Under the pieces are notes generated by a model. It did no database searches, was not told the DNA's origin, and saw only the letters and a list, made by a program, of their open reading frames with translations. The position numbers and the translations under genes are program-made. A DNA stretch of 64,000 nucleotides from a virus: the UHGV virus genome UHGV-0279745. One strand, 5' to 3'. Below are positions 5,798 to 57,842 of the stretch, piece by piece. The first letter of the stretch is position 1, and the number at the start of each line of letters is the position of its first letter.

Positions 5798-5881
5798 GTG
5801 TATGTGTGTAGAATACAGTCGAAGTTATCTGAGATAGATTTTATCTTAGTGGACGACTATGTTATTCCTGGAGATTTTAAA

Positions 5882-46504: not shown

Positions 46505-46546
46505 TTTCAGATATATATTACCTAGGTGAGAGTTTACGTAATACTC
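46505..46546 (+). promoter_or_regulatory. candidate phage promoter (TATATTAC core), second copy
   Basis: Same 27-nt element as 38248-38274; TATATTAC at 46514-46521; imperfect inverted repeat downstream; about 64 nt upstream of ATG 46578. Confidence 0.5.
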
Positions 46547-46577: not shown

Positions 46578-46721
46578 ATGATTTCTGTAAAACACAAAAA
46601 AGCTATCTTCGCTGTTGTTATCGCTGTTGTTCTGGGCTGCCTGTATCTGGACATCGACAAAGGCTACGACACTTGCATTGACAACGGTAATTCCGTTGCA
46701 CAGTGCACTGGTCGCGGTTAA
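46578..46721 (+). CDS. putative small lipoprotein or membrane peptide (47 aa)
   Basis: Not in the ORF track (under 60 aa). RBS AGGAG; n-region KHKK, hydrophobic AIFAVVIAVV, lipobox-like VLGC, three Cys in the predicted mature part; optimised codons; followed by terminator at 46726-46758. Confidence 0.45.
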   Translation: MISVKHKKAIFAVVIAVVLGCLYLDIDKGYDTCIDNGNSVAQCTGRG

Positions 46722-46725
46722 TGTA

Positions 46726-46758
46726 TAAGGCACCTTCGGGTGCCCTTAATTTTTTTAT
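46726..46758 (+). terminator. rho-independent terminator
   Basis: Stem AAGGCACC / GGTGCC(C)TT with TTCG loop, followed by a T-run. Confidence 0.55.
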
Positions 46759-46775: not shown

Positions 46776-47591
46776 ATGATTACCATTAAAGATTATTTTC
46801 CGCGTGGACTGAGCAATGAAAACTTCGTTCCAACTGAAGACATTGCCATCGTAACAGAGTCTAGTGATAAGTCTTTTAAACTCTACTTGAGTACGGCAGC
46901 AGGAAAATCCACTCTTATCCTTCGCGAACCTGAGGTGATAAGCATCTGCTCGTTTGGGGGCGGTGTAGAAGGAACGATTAATTGGTTGAAATCCAGAATG
47001 CATCGTTTGCTTATCGTGAACACCGATCCTGTGATTCGTTTACAGCAATTGAAATCGTTGAATGAAGTTATCGTCGGATTATTGGAACATGAAATGTTCG
47101 GTAATGCTGCGATTGCGGAAGAGATTAAATCTGTAGAACTAATCGAGTGGAGTGATATCGAATACGAACGTGCTGCGTTATTCGCAATGTACGGTGACGA
47201 TAATCCTGTTGTGTTTGCACAAACATTAGATAACGTTACAGTAACAGCGCGCGTATTGTTTGGCTTACAGCGTGTTGAGTTTGAACTGAAACACGTTTAT
47301 GTAAGTAATGCTCCAGAGATGGTGGAAACGTTGACTCGTGCGTTCGCTTACCCGTTAGACGGAGAATGGGAACAGCAGATTAATGAAGCGTTAGGTGCGA
47401 TGCTGTTCTTAGCAGGCACACTAAGGAAAGAAGAGAAATTAGAAGGTCGTGTCTATCCAGAATACGATTTTGTTTGTGAAGAATGTGGAGCACAGTATCA
47501 AATACGTGTTCCTTTAACCGGCCTGACAATCCCGAAAGCCAACGTGCAATGTAAGGAATGTGGTCATGTTCAATACGTAGCGATTAAATAA
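46776..47591 (+). CDS. hypothetical protein with C-terminal CxxC...CxxC zinc-ribbon-like motif
   Basis: 271-aa ORF; RBS GGAG; C-terminus CEECG-(x22)-CKECG. Confidence 0.6.
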   Translation: MITIKDYFPRGLSNENFVPTEDIAIVTESSDKSFKLYLSTAAGKSTLILREPEVISICSFGGGVEGTINWLKSRMHRLLIVNTDPVIRLQQLKSLNEVIVGLLEHEMFGNAAIAEEIKSVELIEWSDIEYERAALFAMYGDDNPVVFAQTLDNVTVTARVLFGLQRVEFELKHVYVSNAPEMVETLTRAFAYPLDGEWEQQINEALGAMLFLAGTLRKEEKLEGRVYPEYDFVCEECGAQYQIRVPLTGLTIPKANVQCKECGHVQYVAIK

Positions 47592-47604
47592 AAGCAACCC
47601 CTAA

Positions 47605-47650
47605 TCCCGAAAAGGATTAGGGGTACACTTTATTTATTTTCGCATTTTCA
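47605..47650 (+). terminator. rho-independent terminator
   Basis: Stem CCCCTAATCC / GGATTAGGGG followed by a T-rich tract. Confidence 0.6.
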
Positions 47651-47667
47651 ACATAGGAGAAAAGTTC

Positions 47668-47826
47668 ATGAAACATGAACAGTTGTTTCAAAGGCTAAAC
47701 GAGTTGTCCGTAAAACAGCTCGAATTTCAACGAAGGGTTAGTGAAATAGCGCAACCAACGTTAACTCAGCCCAAAGTTGCTTATCCAAGAAACACCCAGT
47801 TGATAGTTGAAAGGAGAAGTAACTGA
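47668..47826 (+). CDS. hypothetical small protein (52 aa)
   Basis: Not in the ORF track; RBS AGGAGA 7 nt upstream of the ATG; followed by a hairpin cluster. Confidence 0.35.
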   Translation: MKHEQLFQRLNELSVKQLEFQRRVSEIAQPTLTQPKVAYPRNTQLIVERRSN

Positions 47827-47833
47827 TAAAAAA

Positions 47834-47922
47834 CAAGGGGTGTGTCAGCACCCCTTTTCTTAGCTTTAACTTTTCCGAAGAGAAGTTAAAGCAAGGTACG
47901 CTGCACCAACAGCGTACCTTTT
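47834..47922 (+). terminator. cluster of three consecutive stem-loops (terminator or structured RNA)
   Basis: Hairpins AAGGGGTG/CACCCCTT (47835-47856), CTTTAACTT/AAGTTAAAG (47864-47891) and GGTACGCTG/CAGCGTACC (47895-47918) followed by TTTT. Confidence 0.45.
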
Positions 47923-48114
47923 ACAGCACCATTACGGAAACGTAATGGATTTCTTTAATCACCCTACAAAGAGGGCTTATACCATGAACAATGGTTACTA
48001 CTTTACTGACAAAATGCTTGCAGAACAGAGTGCAACAGAGACTGGCGGAACAGTCTCTGCTGTACGGTGTCAACACATAAAGTTGTTGACGTTTTTACAA
48101 CATTACGAAAGGTA

Positions 48115-48282
48115 ATGAAAATGAACGAATATCAAATACAGATGTTCAATACCGCGATGCGAAATCGTGAAAAACAAATTCAGTTTAACCAACGCATGGA
48201 CGAATATGTTCGTCTCGGCCTCGTTGCGGCACCGAAAACGGTTAACAACCACAATGTTCACCAACCACCTGTAAGGAGATAA
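48115..48282 (+). CDS. hypothetical small protein (about 55 aa)
   Basis: ATG at 48115 or 48121 with GAAAGG upstream; the track's GTG-extended version is 48067-48282; followed by a hairpin at 48299-48319. Confidence 0.35.
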   Translation: MKMNEYQIQMFNTAMRNREKQIQFNQRMDEYVRLGLVAAPKTVNNHNVHQPPVRR

Positions 48283-48424
48283 GTTACTAACTAATAAAGG
48301 GGGTGTTGCTACCACCCCCTGCTTAGTTCGGTAGTTGTTTTCCATTCATAATTAATAGTCTTCTGTTTTTTTTTGCTTTCCGAGACGCATAAGGGGTTAT
48401 AGGGGGAGCCGAAGCTCCCCAGAC

Positions 48425-49987
48425 TCAAAAGAGTTCGTCACCCATGCCGCCGGTAAATACGTTAATCGACGAGGCTGTTACAGTTTCTTCTTTATCACAA
48501 TCCCATGGCAAAATGCCAACATCACGGAAAGGTATTACAGTATAATGATAAGCTTCTTTGGTATCAATAATTGTACGGTGTTTACCGCGTTGTACTTCTA
48601 AATAACTGTGTCCGCTGACGACACGTTTGTTAAAATACATCTCACCGTCAGCTTCGTTGTCTAAGCTAGAGCAGTTGTCGTAAAGACCACGACCAGGTAA
48701 GCTCTTACAGAAACTTGCTGGGTCGAGTGCTTTTAATTTTTTGCCTTCTGGTGAGATTTGGTGTGGTGCTAAGAGGAAACCACGATTACGTACCACTTGG
48801 ATGTTTCGCGCGATACGATAAATTTCTTTAATGTCACTACCCGCAATACCGTTACCGTGCCCTGCTTTGCTGATAGTACCGAAATAGTCTCCGCGTATTC
48901 CAGCTACATGATAACCTCGACGTTTTAAATCTAAAATCAAATCATTCAAATAGTGAATTTTAAAATCGGAGTTTGTGTGCTTTTGGAAAATATACTCCCA
49001 ACCGTTTGCCCGCATTTTACTACAGAGGTAATCTGACATTTGTGCATTGTGTAGCGCTTTTTCTTCGTCAGTTGCCGTTTCAGGTGCAACCATTACCGGA
49101 GCTGTACCTTCAAAGTGTCCGTAAAGTGCTTGATACGCGTAAGCCAAGTTAACATCTAATTCGTTTTCTAAACTTAAATCCAGAATAACCGGCTGTAAGT
49201 CACCTTTAACATTCGCCATCACCTTTTCTGGGGTGTTGAATACAGGTATGCTAATAGAGAGCAATAAACTGAATAATGACTTACAGTTAAAGGGCAGTGC
49301 AGGCATCAGCCAGAGTTCTTCGGTGATCCCTTTGTTACAGCCAAGCATTTGGTTAATTGCTTTCCACCCCGTACGTAACCCGTTCCCCGCTGCTTTCTTA
49401 CTGATAGAGTCGAATACATGTACGAAGGGTGCTTTATTGTCAGTAATCAATTCCCCTACCAGAGAAGGAATCTTATTATGAGAGCGTTCACTGAACGTGG
49501 ATAAGGTATCCTTAAGGTCGTTGAGCGCCGTTTGTAAATCAACACGCGTTTCAGTGCCGTTCAGTGCGCCTAACGTACGACCCAATTTTTGTTTCAGTTG
49601 TACGCCTTGAATAGCTTGACGTAACTGAAAGTAGTATTGTGCTACTTGGCGATTAAGATGCTCGATGCGTGCTTCTGGTTCTTCTGGAATATCATCTTCC
49701 AGGAATTTGGTAATCGTATCGTATAGAGGACGTATTTGCGTAGTGGCCAGTTTCAAACGTTTCATGACGTTTGTGTGGTCGTAAGGCATACCGCCGTCTA
49801 TGATGGATGTGATGATATCCTTGATTTCGACGAGGGCGGCACGTTCGTCACCTTCTTCTGCGTAATCAGGAAGCTTAGCCTCTAACAGCACTTTTCTTAT
49901 GATGTCGTGGTCCTTTTCAGGATCGGTCAGAAGACTTTCAGCGTATAATGTGGCTAAGGCGGTTATCAACATCATTTTGTTATTCAT
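48425..49987 (-). CDS. hypothetical protein (520 aa, function not recognised)
   Basis: Long minus-strand ORF set among + genes; no nucleotide-binding or catalytic signature that I can assign with confidence. Confidence 0.6.
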   Translation of the reverse strand: MNNKMMLITALATLYAESLLTDPEKDHDIIRKVLLEAKLPDYAEEGDERAALVEIKDIITSIIDGGMPYDHTNVMKRLKLATTQIRPLYDTITKFLEDDIPEEPEARIEHLNRQVAQYYFQLRQAIQGVQLKQKLGRTLGALNGTETRVDLQTALNDLKDTLSTFSERSHNKIPSLVGELITDNKAPFVHVFDSISKKAAGNGLRTGWKAINQMLGCNKGITEELWLMPALPFNCKSLFSLLLSISIPVFNTPEKVMANVKGDLQPVILDLSLENELDVNLAYAYQALYGHFEGTAPVMVAPETATDEEKALHNAQMSDYLCSKMRANGWEYIFQKHTNSDFKIHYLNDLILDLKRRGYHVAGIRGDYFGTISKAGHGNGIAGSDIKEIYRIARNIQVVRNRGFLLAPHQISPEGKKLKALDPASFCKSLPGRGLYDNCSSLDNEADGEMYFNKRVVSGHSYLEVQRGKHRTIIDTKEAYHYTVIPFRDVGILPWDCDKEETVTASSINVFTGGMGDELF

Positions 49988-50537: not shown

Positions 50538-52832
50538 ATGAAAGATACCCGAATCTCTAATCTGGAGAAACTCGTACAAGCTGGTAACTCGCTGGTACAA
50601 AGCGTCATTAGTAACAACAGTGCTGGCGAAATGTGGAACACCATCGTTGCTGGTGAGTCTGTACGTAGCAACACGAAAGTTTTTGGTACCCTGCGTGACG
50701 ATGCTGCACAGCACTACGCAAACGCGTTTGCTGGCGGTAAGAAAATGTCCCACGCTGCGGAAGTTGCTTCTGCAATGATTCTGGGTGCTGCTGGTCACGG
50801 TATGGACCTGCAAGAAAAAGTAGCGCAAGAATACGCTAAGCCAGAATTCCATAGCCGTTTTAACCTGGACGTTGCGATTCCTGGTTCCCAAGCTGGTAAC
50901 GGCGACTGGGGCAAAGAGCGTATGGTTGTTGCTCAGGAATACTACACCAACAAAGATTACGACAAAAACCTGGGTCTGACCTGGACGCTGAACGTACGTG
51001 CTCTGGAAACTCAGTCTCGTTTTGCTGAGACTCTGTTCCCGACCATCACCGTTGACACCAACGATGTTGGTATTACCGTACGTACCAAAGTGACCACCGT
51101 TTCTCGTGGTGTCATGCACGCGTTACTGACCAAAGACGTTGTTGAAGATCATCGTCGTAACCTGCACGAAGCGCTGACTGACCACACCGTTCTTCAGGAC
51201 GAAGCGATCAACATCGTTCCTTACGTAATGGAAACCGGTGAAAACGCTGAATACTTCGTAAGCGAAGAACTGGTACCGAACGAATCTGTTCGCCTGGGTC
51301 GTGTACCTCCGTACCCGACTAACTACCTGAGCTTTGCTAAAGACACTCTGAACCTGTTCCAGCTGTCTGCGCATCCGGGTATCGTTCAGGAAGGTTACGA
51401 CGAAACTGATGAAATCGCACCGGGTTGTGCTCTGGGCAGCCTGCTGATTTCCGTACGTAAACCGACCGAAGAAGCGAAAGCAGGTAAATTCATCAAACTG
51501 CACGTTCGTGACATGCAGTTCGCAACCTTCCAGCGTCCTGCTGAAGGTGATGGCCGTGAGCTGGTACTGCAATTCCGTCGTACTGCGTTCTCTCTGAATG
51601 CGAAAACCACCGACTGGAAAGGCGAAGCTATTCCGGCACTGAAATCACTGGAACAGAACTCCTACACCCTGCGTTATGTGATCACCATCAACATGTCTCT
51701 GTTCACTACCGGTCAGTTCGGTGGTAAAGTTGACATCGCTGGTCACAAACTGGAAATCGAAGGTCTGTACGACGCTACCGGTAACAAAGTTGATACCAAA
51801 TCTGGTACCGGCAAAGTTATCCTGGACGGTCTGAAACTTGAACTGATGGGCTGGCGCTTCGATGGTACTCGTACCAACGAAAACCGTCGTACCCAGGGTC
51901 TGCTGCTTGACCCAATCTGGGAACAAGAAAACTACAAACTGCAATACGGTTCTCCGATCCTGACCAAGTCTCCGGTTGGCGTTGAATACGACGATACCGA
52001 ACGTCTGGACGACCTGATTTCCGCAGTTAACATCCGTAACGAACAGCTGGCTATCACTCAGACGCTGTCTTACACCGAAGCGGTACGTAACGCTGCTGCA
52101 AGCATGATCACTCCGTGGGACAAACCGGCCATTCGTGGTCTGGGCCGTCACTGGGTTGCTCCGTGGTTCAAAGAGTCTGACTACAACGTTGATGAAGTTG
52201 TACAGTCCCTGGATACCAAAGATGCACTGATCAACGCTCGTCAGGGCCTGGTACAGCGTATCGGTAATCAGGTAACTCAGGCTATCCAGGAATCTCGCTT
52301 CATTCCTGCGCTGCGTCTGTACACTGCCGATCCGGACATTCTGCCGAAAGTTGTTATTGCAACTGACGAACCGACTGCATCTATGCTGCTGCTGGTACAG
52401 GGCGACCAACGTCTGCTGGGCGATCGCTACGAATACGAAGTGATCACCACCAACGATGACCGCTGGCGTATCTACAACGCAGCTGACGGTTCCTGGACTC
52501 GTCGTCTGCAATGGTTCCTGAAAGTTCCGACTGCGGACGATGGTTCCTACAACGTGCTGAACTGGGGTAACCACTTCTGGTCTCCGATCATGGTTACCAA
52601 CATCAACATTCAGCGTAACGGTTCTACCTCTAAAGAGCTGGCTGTACAGCCGCGCAACGCGCACATCTGCCACTGCCCGATCACTGGTCTGATCTGGGTT
52701 AAAGGCATCACCAAACTGGTTGAAGAAAAACTGGCTTACAATGTTTCTGTTGAACAGAACGGTCAGAAACAAACCGAAGGTGGTGTAGCAGGTAACGTTG
52801 CTGGCGAAGGCAAAGCTGCTGCTGGTAAGTAA
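50538..52832 (+). CDS. very highly expressed structural protein candidate (major capsid or tail sheath; identity unresolved)
   Basis: 764 aa; extreme preferred-codon usage (ctg, cgt, ggt, aac, gaa) producing long stop-free antisense frames; RBS AAGG; followed by a strong terminator. Confidence 0.8.
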   Translation: MKDTRISNLEKLVQAGNSLVQSVISNNSAGEMWNTIVAGESVRSNTKVFGTLRDDAAQHYANAFAGGKKMSHAAEVASAMILGAAGHGMDLQEKVAQEYAKPEFHSRFNLDVAIPGSQAGNGDWGKERMVVAQEYYTNKDYDKNLGLTWTLNVRALETQSRFAETLFPTITVDTNDVGITVRTKVTTVSRGVMHALLTKDVVEDHRRNLHEALTDHTVLQDEAINIVPYVMETGENAEYFVSEELVPNESVRLGRVPPYPTNYLSFAKDTLNLFQLSAHPGIVQEGYDETDEIAPGCALGSLLISVRKPTEEAKAGKFIKLHVRDMQFATFQRPAEGDGRELVLQFRRTAFSLNAKTTDWKGEAIPALKSLEQNSYTLRYVITINMSLFTTGQFGGKVDIAGHKLEIEGLYDATGNKVDTKSGTGKVILDGLKLELMGWRFDGTRTNENRRTQGLLLDPIWEQENYKLQYGSPILTKSPVGVEYDDTERLDDLISAVNIRNEQLAITQTLSYTEAVRNAAASMITPWDKPAIRGLGRHWVAPWFKESDYNVDEVVQSLDTKDALINARQGLVQRIGNQVTQAIQESRFIPALRLYTADPDILPKVVIATDEPTASMLLLVQGDQRLLGDRYEYEVITTNDDRWRIYNAADGSWTRRLQWFLKVPTADDGSYNVLNWGNHFWSPIMVTNINIQRNGSTSKELAVQPRNAHICHCPITGLIWVKGITKLVEEKLAYNVSVEQNGQKQTEGGVAGNVAGEGKAAAGK

Positions 52833-57805: not shown

Positions 57806-57842
57806 CAGGAGAGCTTCGGCTCTCCTCCTTTATTTTTATTCC
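57806..57842 (+). terminator. rho-independent terminator
   Basis: Stem AGGAGAGC / GCTCTCCT with TTCG loop, followed by a T-rich tract. Confidence 0.6.

Follow-up and report, generated by a model that had tools for sequence, protein, structure and literature searches.

The 833-bp island at positions 47592-48424 of UHGV-0279745, a virus genome of which a stretch of 64,000 nucleotides was analysed (hereafter, the window), is best explained as a hypervariable accessory locus made of a tandem array of small-gene cassettes. Each cassette would consist of a gene of about 50 codons with a Shine-Dalgarno site ahead of it and a block of three hairpins (denoted here as T, R and V), and the cassette proteins would form a single clade-restricted basic family with an N-terminal amphipathic helix, in which gp71 and gp72 of Salmonella phage SPN3US would be included. 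According to this proposal, the window carries two live genes, ORF1 (for open reading frame; paralog type A) and ORF3 (type D), plus the 5' stump of a type-E gene, whose loss would have made the frame termed ORF2. As a structural description of the locus alone, this picture is held with considerable confidence, and the whole account, which adds roles for the hairpins, expression by read-through and a role in host interaction, is favoured with less assurance.

An accessory island that differs among close relatives

To judge from its gene content, the window belongs to a phiKZ/SPN3US-like jumbo phage, because it contains matches to the PhiKZ_MCP domain (the PhiKZ-type major capsid protein, ORF 50538-52832) and to the divDNAB domain (a divergent DnaB-like helicase, 48425-49987, minus strand), and the helicase is 85% identical to that of Erwinia phages phiEaH2 and Asesino (Erskinevirus) and 83% identical to that of SPN3US (Seoulvirus), its closest records. 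The island is the convergent junction between a plus-strand gene for a 271-aa protein with a C-terminal zinc ribbon (46776-47591; match to PHROG 10180, of unknown function, at E = 2.8e-6) and the helicase gene's stop codon. In phiEaH2, in Asesino and in contig L022 the same flanking genes are joined by 110-122 nt that contain two hairpins and no small genes; by this comparison of gene order, the small-gene island is an accessory insertion between genes that are adjacent in related phages. Its G+C content is 0.41, versus about 0.46 in the surroundings, and neither a GC-skew shift nor an origin was seen at the island. A megablast search of the island DNA against 50,697 phage records gave no match, and a distant blastn search recovered just the 83-nt helicase 3' element, in SPN3US-like phages.

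The variability of the locus was evaluated in 22 contigs of the window's clade, gathered through searches that started from the helicase, from the small proteins and from the ORF1 protein in its exact form. Six paralog types (A to F) were distinguished, in islands of 485-1302 nt holding one to four intact genes and in at least 12 arrangements. With lower-case letters and primes standing for truncated remnants, these are A-F-C-E (four intact genes), A-F-E, A-F-D, A-D, A-E, A-C-e'-D, A-e'-D (this window), A-e'', B-D, b'-C-D, c'-E-f'-D and e'-F-D. At least one intact small gene is kept in every one of the 22 contigs. In contig L017 the helicase protein is identical to that of the window, the 271-aa gene is 98.9% identical and the island is different, while in L020 the 271-aa gene is 72.7% identical, yet ORF1 is 98.7% identical. 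Turnover of the array, as far as these contigs reveal it, outruns point mutation. In the public collection, 824 blocks contain a protein identical to that of ORF1; the ten places listed are on contigs of 222-230 kb, and some of the sample names suggest that the sources were human-gut metagenomes.

The boundaries of gains and losses were also traced. Two T-R copies with 55-65 nt in common flank the F cassette (335 nt), which some contigs have and others lack, the C cassette is bounded by a 21-nt repeat, and partial deletions fall at microhomologies of 6-11 nt, located in leaders and in coding sequence. Remnants of such events are a 5'-truncated C and a 3' fragment of F after E, both in L010 and L017, as well as chimeric tails in P0004 and P0025. 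Hairpin blocks are gained and lost together with their cassettes. By these comparisons, the T-R repeats act as portable homology, with whole cassettes gained or lost between copies, partial deletions arise from short microhomologies beside palindromes, and cassettes are swapped between co-circulating phages. At the level of sequence comparison it can be taken as established that the small genes are individually dispensable, never all lost within the window's clade, and exchanged between lineages. An earlier sequence-only reading of the window had described an island of small ORFs that all have hairpins of their own. This view was borne out, and the absence of the genes in Erskinevirus marks the island as accessory.

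The small-protein family of ORF1 and ORF3

The three ORFs were found where that reading had placed them, at 47668-47826 (52 aa), 47945-48115 (56 aa) and 48115/48121-48282 (55/53 aa). The coding status that had been left unverified is now established for ORF1 and ORF3 by purifying selection, by family homology and by their conserved position in Seoulvirus and Machinavirus phages. With orthologues diverged by about 9-19% in DNA, the ratio of non-synonymous to synonymous substitution rates (dN/dS) was 0.26 for ORF1 versus L004 (7 synonymous and 8 non-synonymous changes) and 0.10-0.13 for ORF3 (16 synonymous and 11 non-synonymous changes). Intact paralogs of types E and F gave values of 0.08-0.66 (0.08-0.20 for type E alone), purifying selection was detected in all six paralog types with two comparable intact versions, and a third-position bias was seen in the small ORFs. 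By these substitution patterns, ORF1 and ORF3 are real genes under purifying selection. Relatives share the ATG at 48121 as the start of ORF3, the one at 48115 being out of frame in them.

A profile built from four family members retrieved 41 protein clusters, all of 44-87 aa, whose longest contigs measured 1-244 kb (219-244 kb for 19 of the 41). The clusters with a source name came from Salmonella phages or from assemblies of E. coli, Shigella or Salmonella, and these names point to E. coli or Shigella as the probable host. Because an exhaustive search of 1.84 billion protein representatives returned just seven family members, the family is, at the depth of these searches, confined to one phage clade. 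Homology between the window's genes and those of named phages was also recovered with a non-circular profile, made of Seoulvirus and Machinavirus members only and searched against all 1836 six-frame segments of the window: ORF1 ranked first (E = 0.0019) and ORF3 second (E = 0.01), with the next best segment at E = 2. In the equivalent slot of SPN3US two ORFs of 48 aa are annotated, gp71 and gp72, and phages Huxley, pSal-SNUABM-04, pEa_SNUABM_29 and SPAsTU have one family gene each. The slot, with the gp70 homologue on one side and the 3' end of the helicase gene on the other, is thus conserved, on the same strand. The members from SPN3US and Huxley are matched by PHROG 18219, of unknown function, with E values of 1e-27 to 1e-30.

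In the family alignments M1, K16 and R23 are invariant and F20 is nearly so (F/Y20). Members share a length of about 50 aa and a proline-containing linker followed by a short hydrophobic-basic C-terminus, with motifs such as QIFTE(R/K)R or GGxIIFxKR. AlphaFold2, run with the family alignment, predicted one helix, spanning residues 2-28, and a disordered tail beyond it, with a mean predicted local distance difference test score of 70. Searches of Pfam and PHROGs with ORF1 to ORF3 gave no match at 0.01 and weak matches only at E <= 1, the family profile retrieved no PDB sequence at an E value under 0.3, and a literature search on SPN3US gp71/gp72 found no paper. Two other interpretations were considered and rejected: an antisense 80-aa ORF over ORF3, which is not conserved, and type I toxins, as the proteins are hydrophilic and basic.

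Two observations concern the ends of ORF1. At 47664-47680, a 7-bp hairpin (GTTCATG-AAA-CATGAAC) would sequester the start codon; because it is disrupted in L004 and L005, it is probably not a conserved regulatory feature. At the other end, ORF1 protein variants with altered C-termini are present in other samples (P0004, P0025, P0036 and P0039), one variant tail, ...ERRSNLPSWWS, being borrowed from type F. These are further chimeras, probably produced by microhomology deletions.

ORF2 as the scar of a type-E gene

The second frame did not hold as a gene. ORF2 proved to be a deletion-generated chimera, whose frame is not conserved and is truncated differently in L004 and L020. The family hidden Markov model (HMM) matches it at profile positions 1-17 only. 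Type E is intact (57 aa) in L010, L011, L017, L159, L160, L162, L163, L165, L167 and L168, where the protein starting at the ATG equivalent to 47984 reads MNNGYYFTDKMLAEQSAAKTNLQQRIYKYSQLGMDKRLKPSTNRFTQIFTEKRSEHY. Up to 48027, to the left of the junction, the window matches an A-E array (L165, positions 1-437, 96%), and from 48051, to the right of it, the window matches the hairpin V', the leader and the D gene, upstream of and including type D (L164, positions 319-693, 94%). The type-E gene is cut after 17 codons in the window, after 7 codons in L004 and L005, and after 2 codons in L020 and L166; by these end points it is a gene lost in three independent ways. ORF2 is, by this alignment, a scar, formed when a deletion joined the 5' end of type E to the hairpin and leader that precede ORF3. 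When small ORFs and hairpins are compared across related phages, as had been recommended, ORF1 and ORF3 are conserved and the stems stay paired, and it is ORF2 that is not conserved.

The T-R-V block and the remaining hairpins

Seven very stable hairpins (z of -3.5 or lower) and two weaker ones were found in the island (Table 1). The 133 nt from 47828 to 47960 form four perfect stem-loops with a folding energy of -60.1 kcal/mol, versus -24.3 +/- 3.3 for shuffled sequences (z = -10.9), and the four serial hairpins T, R, V and W have individual z values of -3.5 to -5.9. The series of three stem-loops previously noted at 47834-47922 is therefore real, but it comprises four hairpins and runs through 47948. 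Nor do these hairpins behave as a stand-alone RNA, since the segment 47835-47920 is one of 11 distinct versions, across relatives, of a repeated cassette-boundary block. Its geometry is constant: T, of 8-12 bp (mostly GGGGTG..CACCCC), a 6-nt spacer, R, of 13 bp, and V, of 11-12 bp, with a 0-nt spacer. The R arms across copies read GCTTTAACTTTTC..GAAGTTAAAGC, and R occurs once in the window, at this locus. The hairpin V', found inside ORF2, corresponds to the V of a second T-R-V block, whose T and R parts were lost in the deletion.

Base pairing is preserved while the sequence changes. R of L020 shows a compensatory change from A:T to T:A. In 10 versions of V, 110 of 110 cells are paired and 8 of the 11 pairs are changed on both sides, versus 28-49% of cells paired in slid controls, with the proviso that the register of this alignment, as of that of the helicase hairpin considered below, was chosen from the hairpins themselves, which favours pairing. 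The loops, in turn, fall into two classes. Inverted loops were found in T1 (CGAAAA <-> TTTTCG, in L161 and L165), in T hairpins (five loop pairs among orthologues), in W (GAAA to TTTC, in seven relatives) and in the hairpin downstream of ORF3 (in L010), while that of R was never inverted among relatives. Since their loops flip, T, T1 and W would work in either direction, as orientation-free palindromes that may be bidirectional terminators or DNA-level elements, and R, together with the helicase 3' hairpin, would be strand-specific.

Thirteen terminator-like sites were counted in 3 kb, versus 2.4 +/- 1.6 expected. On the letters alone, a G/C-rich stem-loop followed by a U tract is present in T1, T, V, W and the hairpin after ORF3; R has no U tract and is not terminator-like. 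In a scan with the consensus terminator, T1 passed on both strands and W on the plus strand. The hairpin at 48298-48320 is probably a terminator shared by ORF3 and the convergent helicase transcript, because the better U/TTAT tail lies on the minus strand. A search of Rfam 15 against the island at permissive E values gave best scores of 17-22 bits (E of about 0.1 to 3), versus gathering thresholds of 50-95. With no Rfam family and scores so far under the thresholds, the suggestion that the island might hold small RNAs found no backing in this RNA search.

The leader of ORF3 contains a weak hairpin in which two pairs change compensatorily in the L006 clade, as read from the sequences and in two haplotypes only. 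Within the leader (48069-48100), TGTTG(AC) can pair with either the upstream GTCAACA or the downstream CAACA, and in the L006 clade the three vary in concert (G/C/G in place of A/T/A), again in two haplotypes only. This hints at alternative structures.

Table 1. Features of the island and their positions in the window
Feature	Position	Strand	Remarks
Hairpin T1, 11-12 bp palindrome	47597-47624		6 nt after the stop of the 271-aa gene; -19.3 kcal/mol, z = -5.1
U-rich tail TTTATTTATTTTCGC after T1	47629-47643	+	Kept in Seoulvirus and Machinavirus relatives; one copy in the window
ORF1, paralog type A, 52 aa	47668-47826	+	GGAG at 47656-47659, 8 nt before ATG; basic protein
Hairpin T (GGGGTG..CACCCC), G-rich palindrome	47835-47856		Ends the ORF1 cassette; first T-R-V element
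Hairpin R (GCTTTAACTTTTC-CGAA-GAGAAGTTAAAGC), 13 bp	47863-47892	+	Conserved inter-cassette repeat; fixed loop orientation
Hairpin V, 11 bp	47893-47920		Abuts R, no spacer; stem differs between copies, always perfectly paired
Hairpin W, 8 bp, GAAA loop	47929-47948		Precedes type-E gene
ORF2, chimeric frame	47945-48115	+	Hairpin W, E' remnant, hairpin V' and ORF3 leader
E' remnant, first 17 codons of type E (MNNGYYFTDKMLAEQSA)	47984-48034	+	AAAGAGGG at 47968-47975
Deletion junction	48028-48050		Microhomology GCA(R)CA(R)AGAC common to both halves
Hairpin V' (CAGAGACTG-GCGGAA-CAGTCTCTG)	48034-48061		-22.9 kcal/mol, z = -5.6; inside ORF2
ORF3 leader hairpin (GTCAACA-CATAAAGT-TGTTGAC)	48069-48090	+	Weak, z = -1.65, not significant
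ORF3, paralog type D, 53 aa	48121-48282	+	Purifying selection; cross-clade HMM
Hairpin after ORF3	48298-48320 (extends 48289-48328)		z = -3.6; better U/TTAT tail on minus strand
Helicase 3' element	48340-48424	-	T9 run 48366-48374; GACGCATAA 48384-48392; 7-bp hairpin 48403-48420

The helicase 3' element at the right end

The last 85-125 nt of the island are conserved beyond the clade, including in Erskinevirus phages without the small ORFs. The order of the element is a run of 8-11 T, a G, GAC(G/A)CATAA, a 7-bp hairpin and the helicase stop codon. The hairpin lies 4 nt beyond that codon and has a moderate energy (z = -2.2 to -3.0); in 11 versions, 77 of 77 cells are paired and 6 of 7 pairs are changed on both sides. 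On the helicase strand its loop is UUCG in the window and UACG, UUAG, UAAG, CUAG or CAAG in other versions, and it was inverted in none of the 16 clade contigs examined. This right-end block is interpreted as a putative 3' untranslated region (UTR) of the helicase gene, which would end at the terminator common with ORF3 and lie outside the array. A mini-ORF starting at the conserved ATG of the element was rejected, because the T-run varies between 8 and 10 nt among close relatives, so that no ORF is conserved across it. The possibility that GACGCATAA, or ACRCATAA, was a repeated genomic signal was dropped as well, as it is not enriched.

Downstream of the helicase gene, two minus-strand TATG motifs (48386-48389 and about 48346-48349) are conserved across genera. 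TATG is the start motif of phiKZ late promoters, and it is conceivable that the conserved motif is a late start of this type, giving a short RNA that would end at the 48320-48298 hairpin. A hairpin very similar to the helicase 3' one is found in another gap between convergent genes, at 57808-57825 (GGAGAGC-CGAA-GCTCTCC).

Expression signals

A sigma-70 scan of the island showed no convincing promoter. A recurrent motif, AGATA[GT]ATATTAY followed by ..GTG, was found in the window and in SPN3US in 25 instances, all on the plus strand: six cores in the window, at 5831, 7242, 11006, 38251, 46508 (46508-46521) and 52903, and 19 sites in SPN3US. It corresponds to the predicted early promoters of phiKZ (TATATTAC), 201phi2-1 and OBP (PMC7058600; see also PMC7598289), and would represent the early promoter type, used by the virion RNA polymerase. 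The motif class with CAGATATATATTACCTAGGTGAG has an inverted repeat downstream, which would form a 5' hairpin. The island contains no such motif, its best position weight matrix score being -4.7, versus 19.6-54 at the six window sites. The nearest upstream motif, at 46508 (65412 in SPN3US), lies 1.16 kb from the array and heads a 47-aa membrane protein, the 271-aa gene and the array. Read-through from this early-type promoter would be the most economical source of array transcripts, and the small genes are probably expressed in this way.

In phiKZ, terminators consist of a conserved stem-loop followed by TTAT, and tandem motifs give longer stems (PMC10914365, PMC11512511). The sequence TTTATTTATTTTCGC is most likely the tail of terminator T1, of this hairpin-plus-TTAT type, while a promoter function keeps some plausibility. 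The idea that it was a repeated early promoter was dropped, given its single copy in the window and the presence of a related 11-mer, TATTTATTTTC, just twice in SPN3US; a scan of IMG/VR for the TTTATTTATTTTCGC/TATTTATTTTC pattern returned random AT-rich matches only. Runs of at least eight T were also recorded in the window, seven in total (20462, 23212, 38225, 40738, 48366, 52878 and 58236), all on the plus strand and none on the minus strand. Six of them come no more than about 13 nt after an inverted repeat, mostly in the form YTTTA-T(8-10), and the run at 48366 is 45 nt downstream of the nearest hairpin. A promoter role for the runs was dropped, and they were treated as putative terminator tails.

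Functional interpretation and alternative explanations

In the account preferred here, the hairpins most likely serve as intrinsic terminators or insulators and as 3' stabilisers, and the small proteins would probably act early in infection by binding a macromolecule of the host or, possibly, of the phage. Because of the pattern of array turnover, a role related to host range or anti-defence is put forward, tentatively. Small, basic, largely helical proteins that are confined to one clade, duplicated into several types, exchanged between lineages and encoded downstream of an early-type promoter are what one usually finds among accessory genes for host interaction or anti-defence. Several points weigh against parts of this account. 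The proposed role in host interaction is drawn only from how the array turns over and from the size, charge and position of the proteins. The hairpins T, V and that after ORF3 pass the terminator scan on the minus strand only, the plus-strand tails of T and V being U-rich but shorter. No cassette promoter was found by the sigma-70 or early-motif scans of the island, and the strong hairpin T1 would stand between the 46508 promoter and the cassettes, making their level of expression uncertain. Regarding the family, PHROG 18219 matches ORF1 weakly (E = 0.11) and ORF3 not at all, pairwise comparisons of paralog types show little similarity (BLASTP E of 0.03 to 6e-4), and the literature search for SPN3US gp71/72 yielded no expression, translation or termination data. 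As to the stems, template switching or gene conversion at quasi-palindromes can match both arms without selection; compensatory changes could therefore arise mechanically, which makes covariation a weaker proof of function here than usual.

The small proteins might instead serve replication or transcription of the phage, for instance as factors of the DnaB-like helicase or as replisome adaptors acting through the C-terminal tail. Such a role would fit basic, single-helix proteins with a short C-terminal motif, whose intact copies are under purifying selection and whose position beside the helicase 3' end is conserved across three genus-level groups. Nevertheless, it is considered unlikely, as the Erskinevirus helicase is 85% identical, yet the genes are entirely absent there; moreover, copy number varies from one to four and paralogs substitute for one another among near-identical phages, which is rare for core machinery, and the small genes are convergent with the helicase gene and not co-transcribed with it. 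The simplest alternative, an ordinary terminator region between convergent genes in which small ORFs occur by chance, is barely credible. Convergent genes do flank the island and several hairpins score as terminators, T1 on both strands, but relatives need 110-122 nt and two hairpins, versus 833 nt here, and the conservation, mutual homology and selective constraint of the ORFs already contradict it.

Two further explanations, both regarded as highly improbable, shift the emphasis to RNA or to DNA. In one of them, the functional products would be structured RNAs, with the hairpin series serving as a small RNA, as a processing site or as a regulatory element in a 3' or 5' UTR, and the presence of ORFs would be incidental. 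The hairpins are indeed exceptionally stable and closely packed, their stems remain perfectly paired despite sequence change, loop orientation is fixed in R and in the helicase 3' hairpin, and the production of UTR-derived and antisense RNAs has been reported for phiKZ-type phages (PMC10914365). However, dN/dS values well below 1 and the third-position bias indicate that the ORFs are constrained as proteins, no Rfam match was obtained, hairpin blocks come and go with the cassettes, and the free inversion of loops in T, T1 and W would be incompatible with a specific RNA. In the other, the array is neutral or selfish clutter that persists through recombination at palindromes and repeats, with no benefit to the phage. 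The abundance of remnants and chimeras (the E' stump, the truncated C, the F fragment, the P0004 and P0025 tails) and the loss of type E in three independent ways agree with this view, but purifying selection acts on all six comparable paralog types, none of the 22 contigs lacks an intact gene, and the family has been kept at the locus since before the Seoulvirus, Machinavirus and window lineages split. A more ambitious version of the cassette-array account, in which the T-R-V blocks would be dedicated exchange hot spots, used by a phage function to shuffle an anti-defence or host-range protein family, appears improbable, though slightly less so than these two. Possible agents of such an exchange are an SbcCD-like palindrome nuclease, of which one subunit is annotated in the SPN3US record, or template switching during replication.

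Comparison with known systems and significance

The nearest counterparts are SPN3US gp71 and gp72 (PHROG 18219), which occupy the slot between the gp70 homologue and the helicase 3' end as two tandem copies, have 47-48 aa with an N-terminal helix containing K..(F/Y)xQR, a Pro-containing linker and a hydrophobic-basic C-terminus, and are each followed by a hairpin. They differ in that the window paralogs are 21-29% identical to them and lack the KGLGG motif of the Seoulvirus members, and in that the window's clade has six types instead of one or two, the T-R-V block and a far greater variation in arrangement.

Lambdoid morons (Juhala/Hendrix) and the hyperplastic regions of T4-type phages are also comparable. 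Like these, the island inserts extra small genes with their own hairpins between genes that are adjacent in relatives, has a lower G+C content and varies in content. A moron has its own terminator; in the island each gene is followed by a stable hairpin and a U-rich tail, those of ORF1 and ORF3 passing the scan on the minus strand only. Unlike in morons, no cassette promoter was found in the island by sigma-70 and early-motif scans, and the cassettes are all paralogs of one family, bounded by a repeated hairpin block. With phiKZ-like terminators the island shares G/C-rich hairpins with TTAT-containing U-rich tails (T1 on the plus strand, the ORF3 hairpin on the minus strand) and the co-occurrence of hairpin motifs, but it has three to four separate perfect hairpins, with fixed 6-nt and 0-nt spacing and other arm sequences.

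Integron arrays contain short promoterless ORFs, each followed by a palindromic element, in variable number and order. The ORFs of the island are likewise short, apparently promoterless and followed by a palindrome, and their number and order vary among close relatives. In contrast to integrons, boundaries in the island are the 21-65 nt of T-R homology or the 6-11-nt microhomologies, with no fixed attC site, and the hairpins are perfect and short, without extrahelical or bulged bases, in a lytic phage. No integron integrase lies beside the island, whose flanks are the zinc-ribbon and helicase genes, and neither an integrase nor a site-specific recombinase is annotated in the SPN3US record. In sum, the locus is a moron-like hypervariable region of a known type, and what is unusual in it is the triple-hairpin boundary block and the frequent inversion of loops.

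Host-takeover and anti-defence factors are abundant among the small phage proteins encoded in rapidly changing accessory loci, and nucleus-forming jumbo phages are being developed as therapeutics and model systems. For annotation, the analysis separates two real genes from one deletion scar and ties SPN3US gp71/gp72 to a larger, six-type family. The locus differs among phages whose flanking genes are 97-100% identical, which amounts to a natural swap experiment and could allow individual cassettes to be associated with host range or with given defence systems. The T-R-V block, with its flipping and fixed loops, offers candidate terminators or insulators for phage engineering and a case of palindrome-driven plasticity. 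Should dedicated T-R-V exchange be true, a lytic, nucleus-forming jumbo phage widespread in metagenomes would possess a recombinase-free, integron-like generator of diversity, and near-identical phages could carry different sets of effectors.

The left flank of the island

The surroundings had been described as blocks of structural genes. This is loosely true at most, as the immediate neighbours are the zinc-ribbon and helicase genes, and the major capsid gene is found 2 kb further on, beyond the latter. On the left side, the 271-aa gene exists as two alleles that are only 72-73% identical in DNA, in phages whose helicase genes are 89% identical, while the 52 nt that follow its stop differ by at most one base, except for inverted loops in two contigs. 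The divergence of the alleles next to a near-invariant segment suggests that the 3' end of this gene is a recombination boundary. Further upstream, the 47-aa ORF (46578-46721) contains a hydrophobic stretch and a conserved C-terminal motif, C..NGNSV..CTGRG; it lies upstream of the gp70 homologue in many relatives (L024-L032) and has its own hairpin after it, at 46729-46744.

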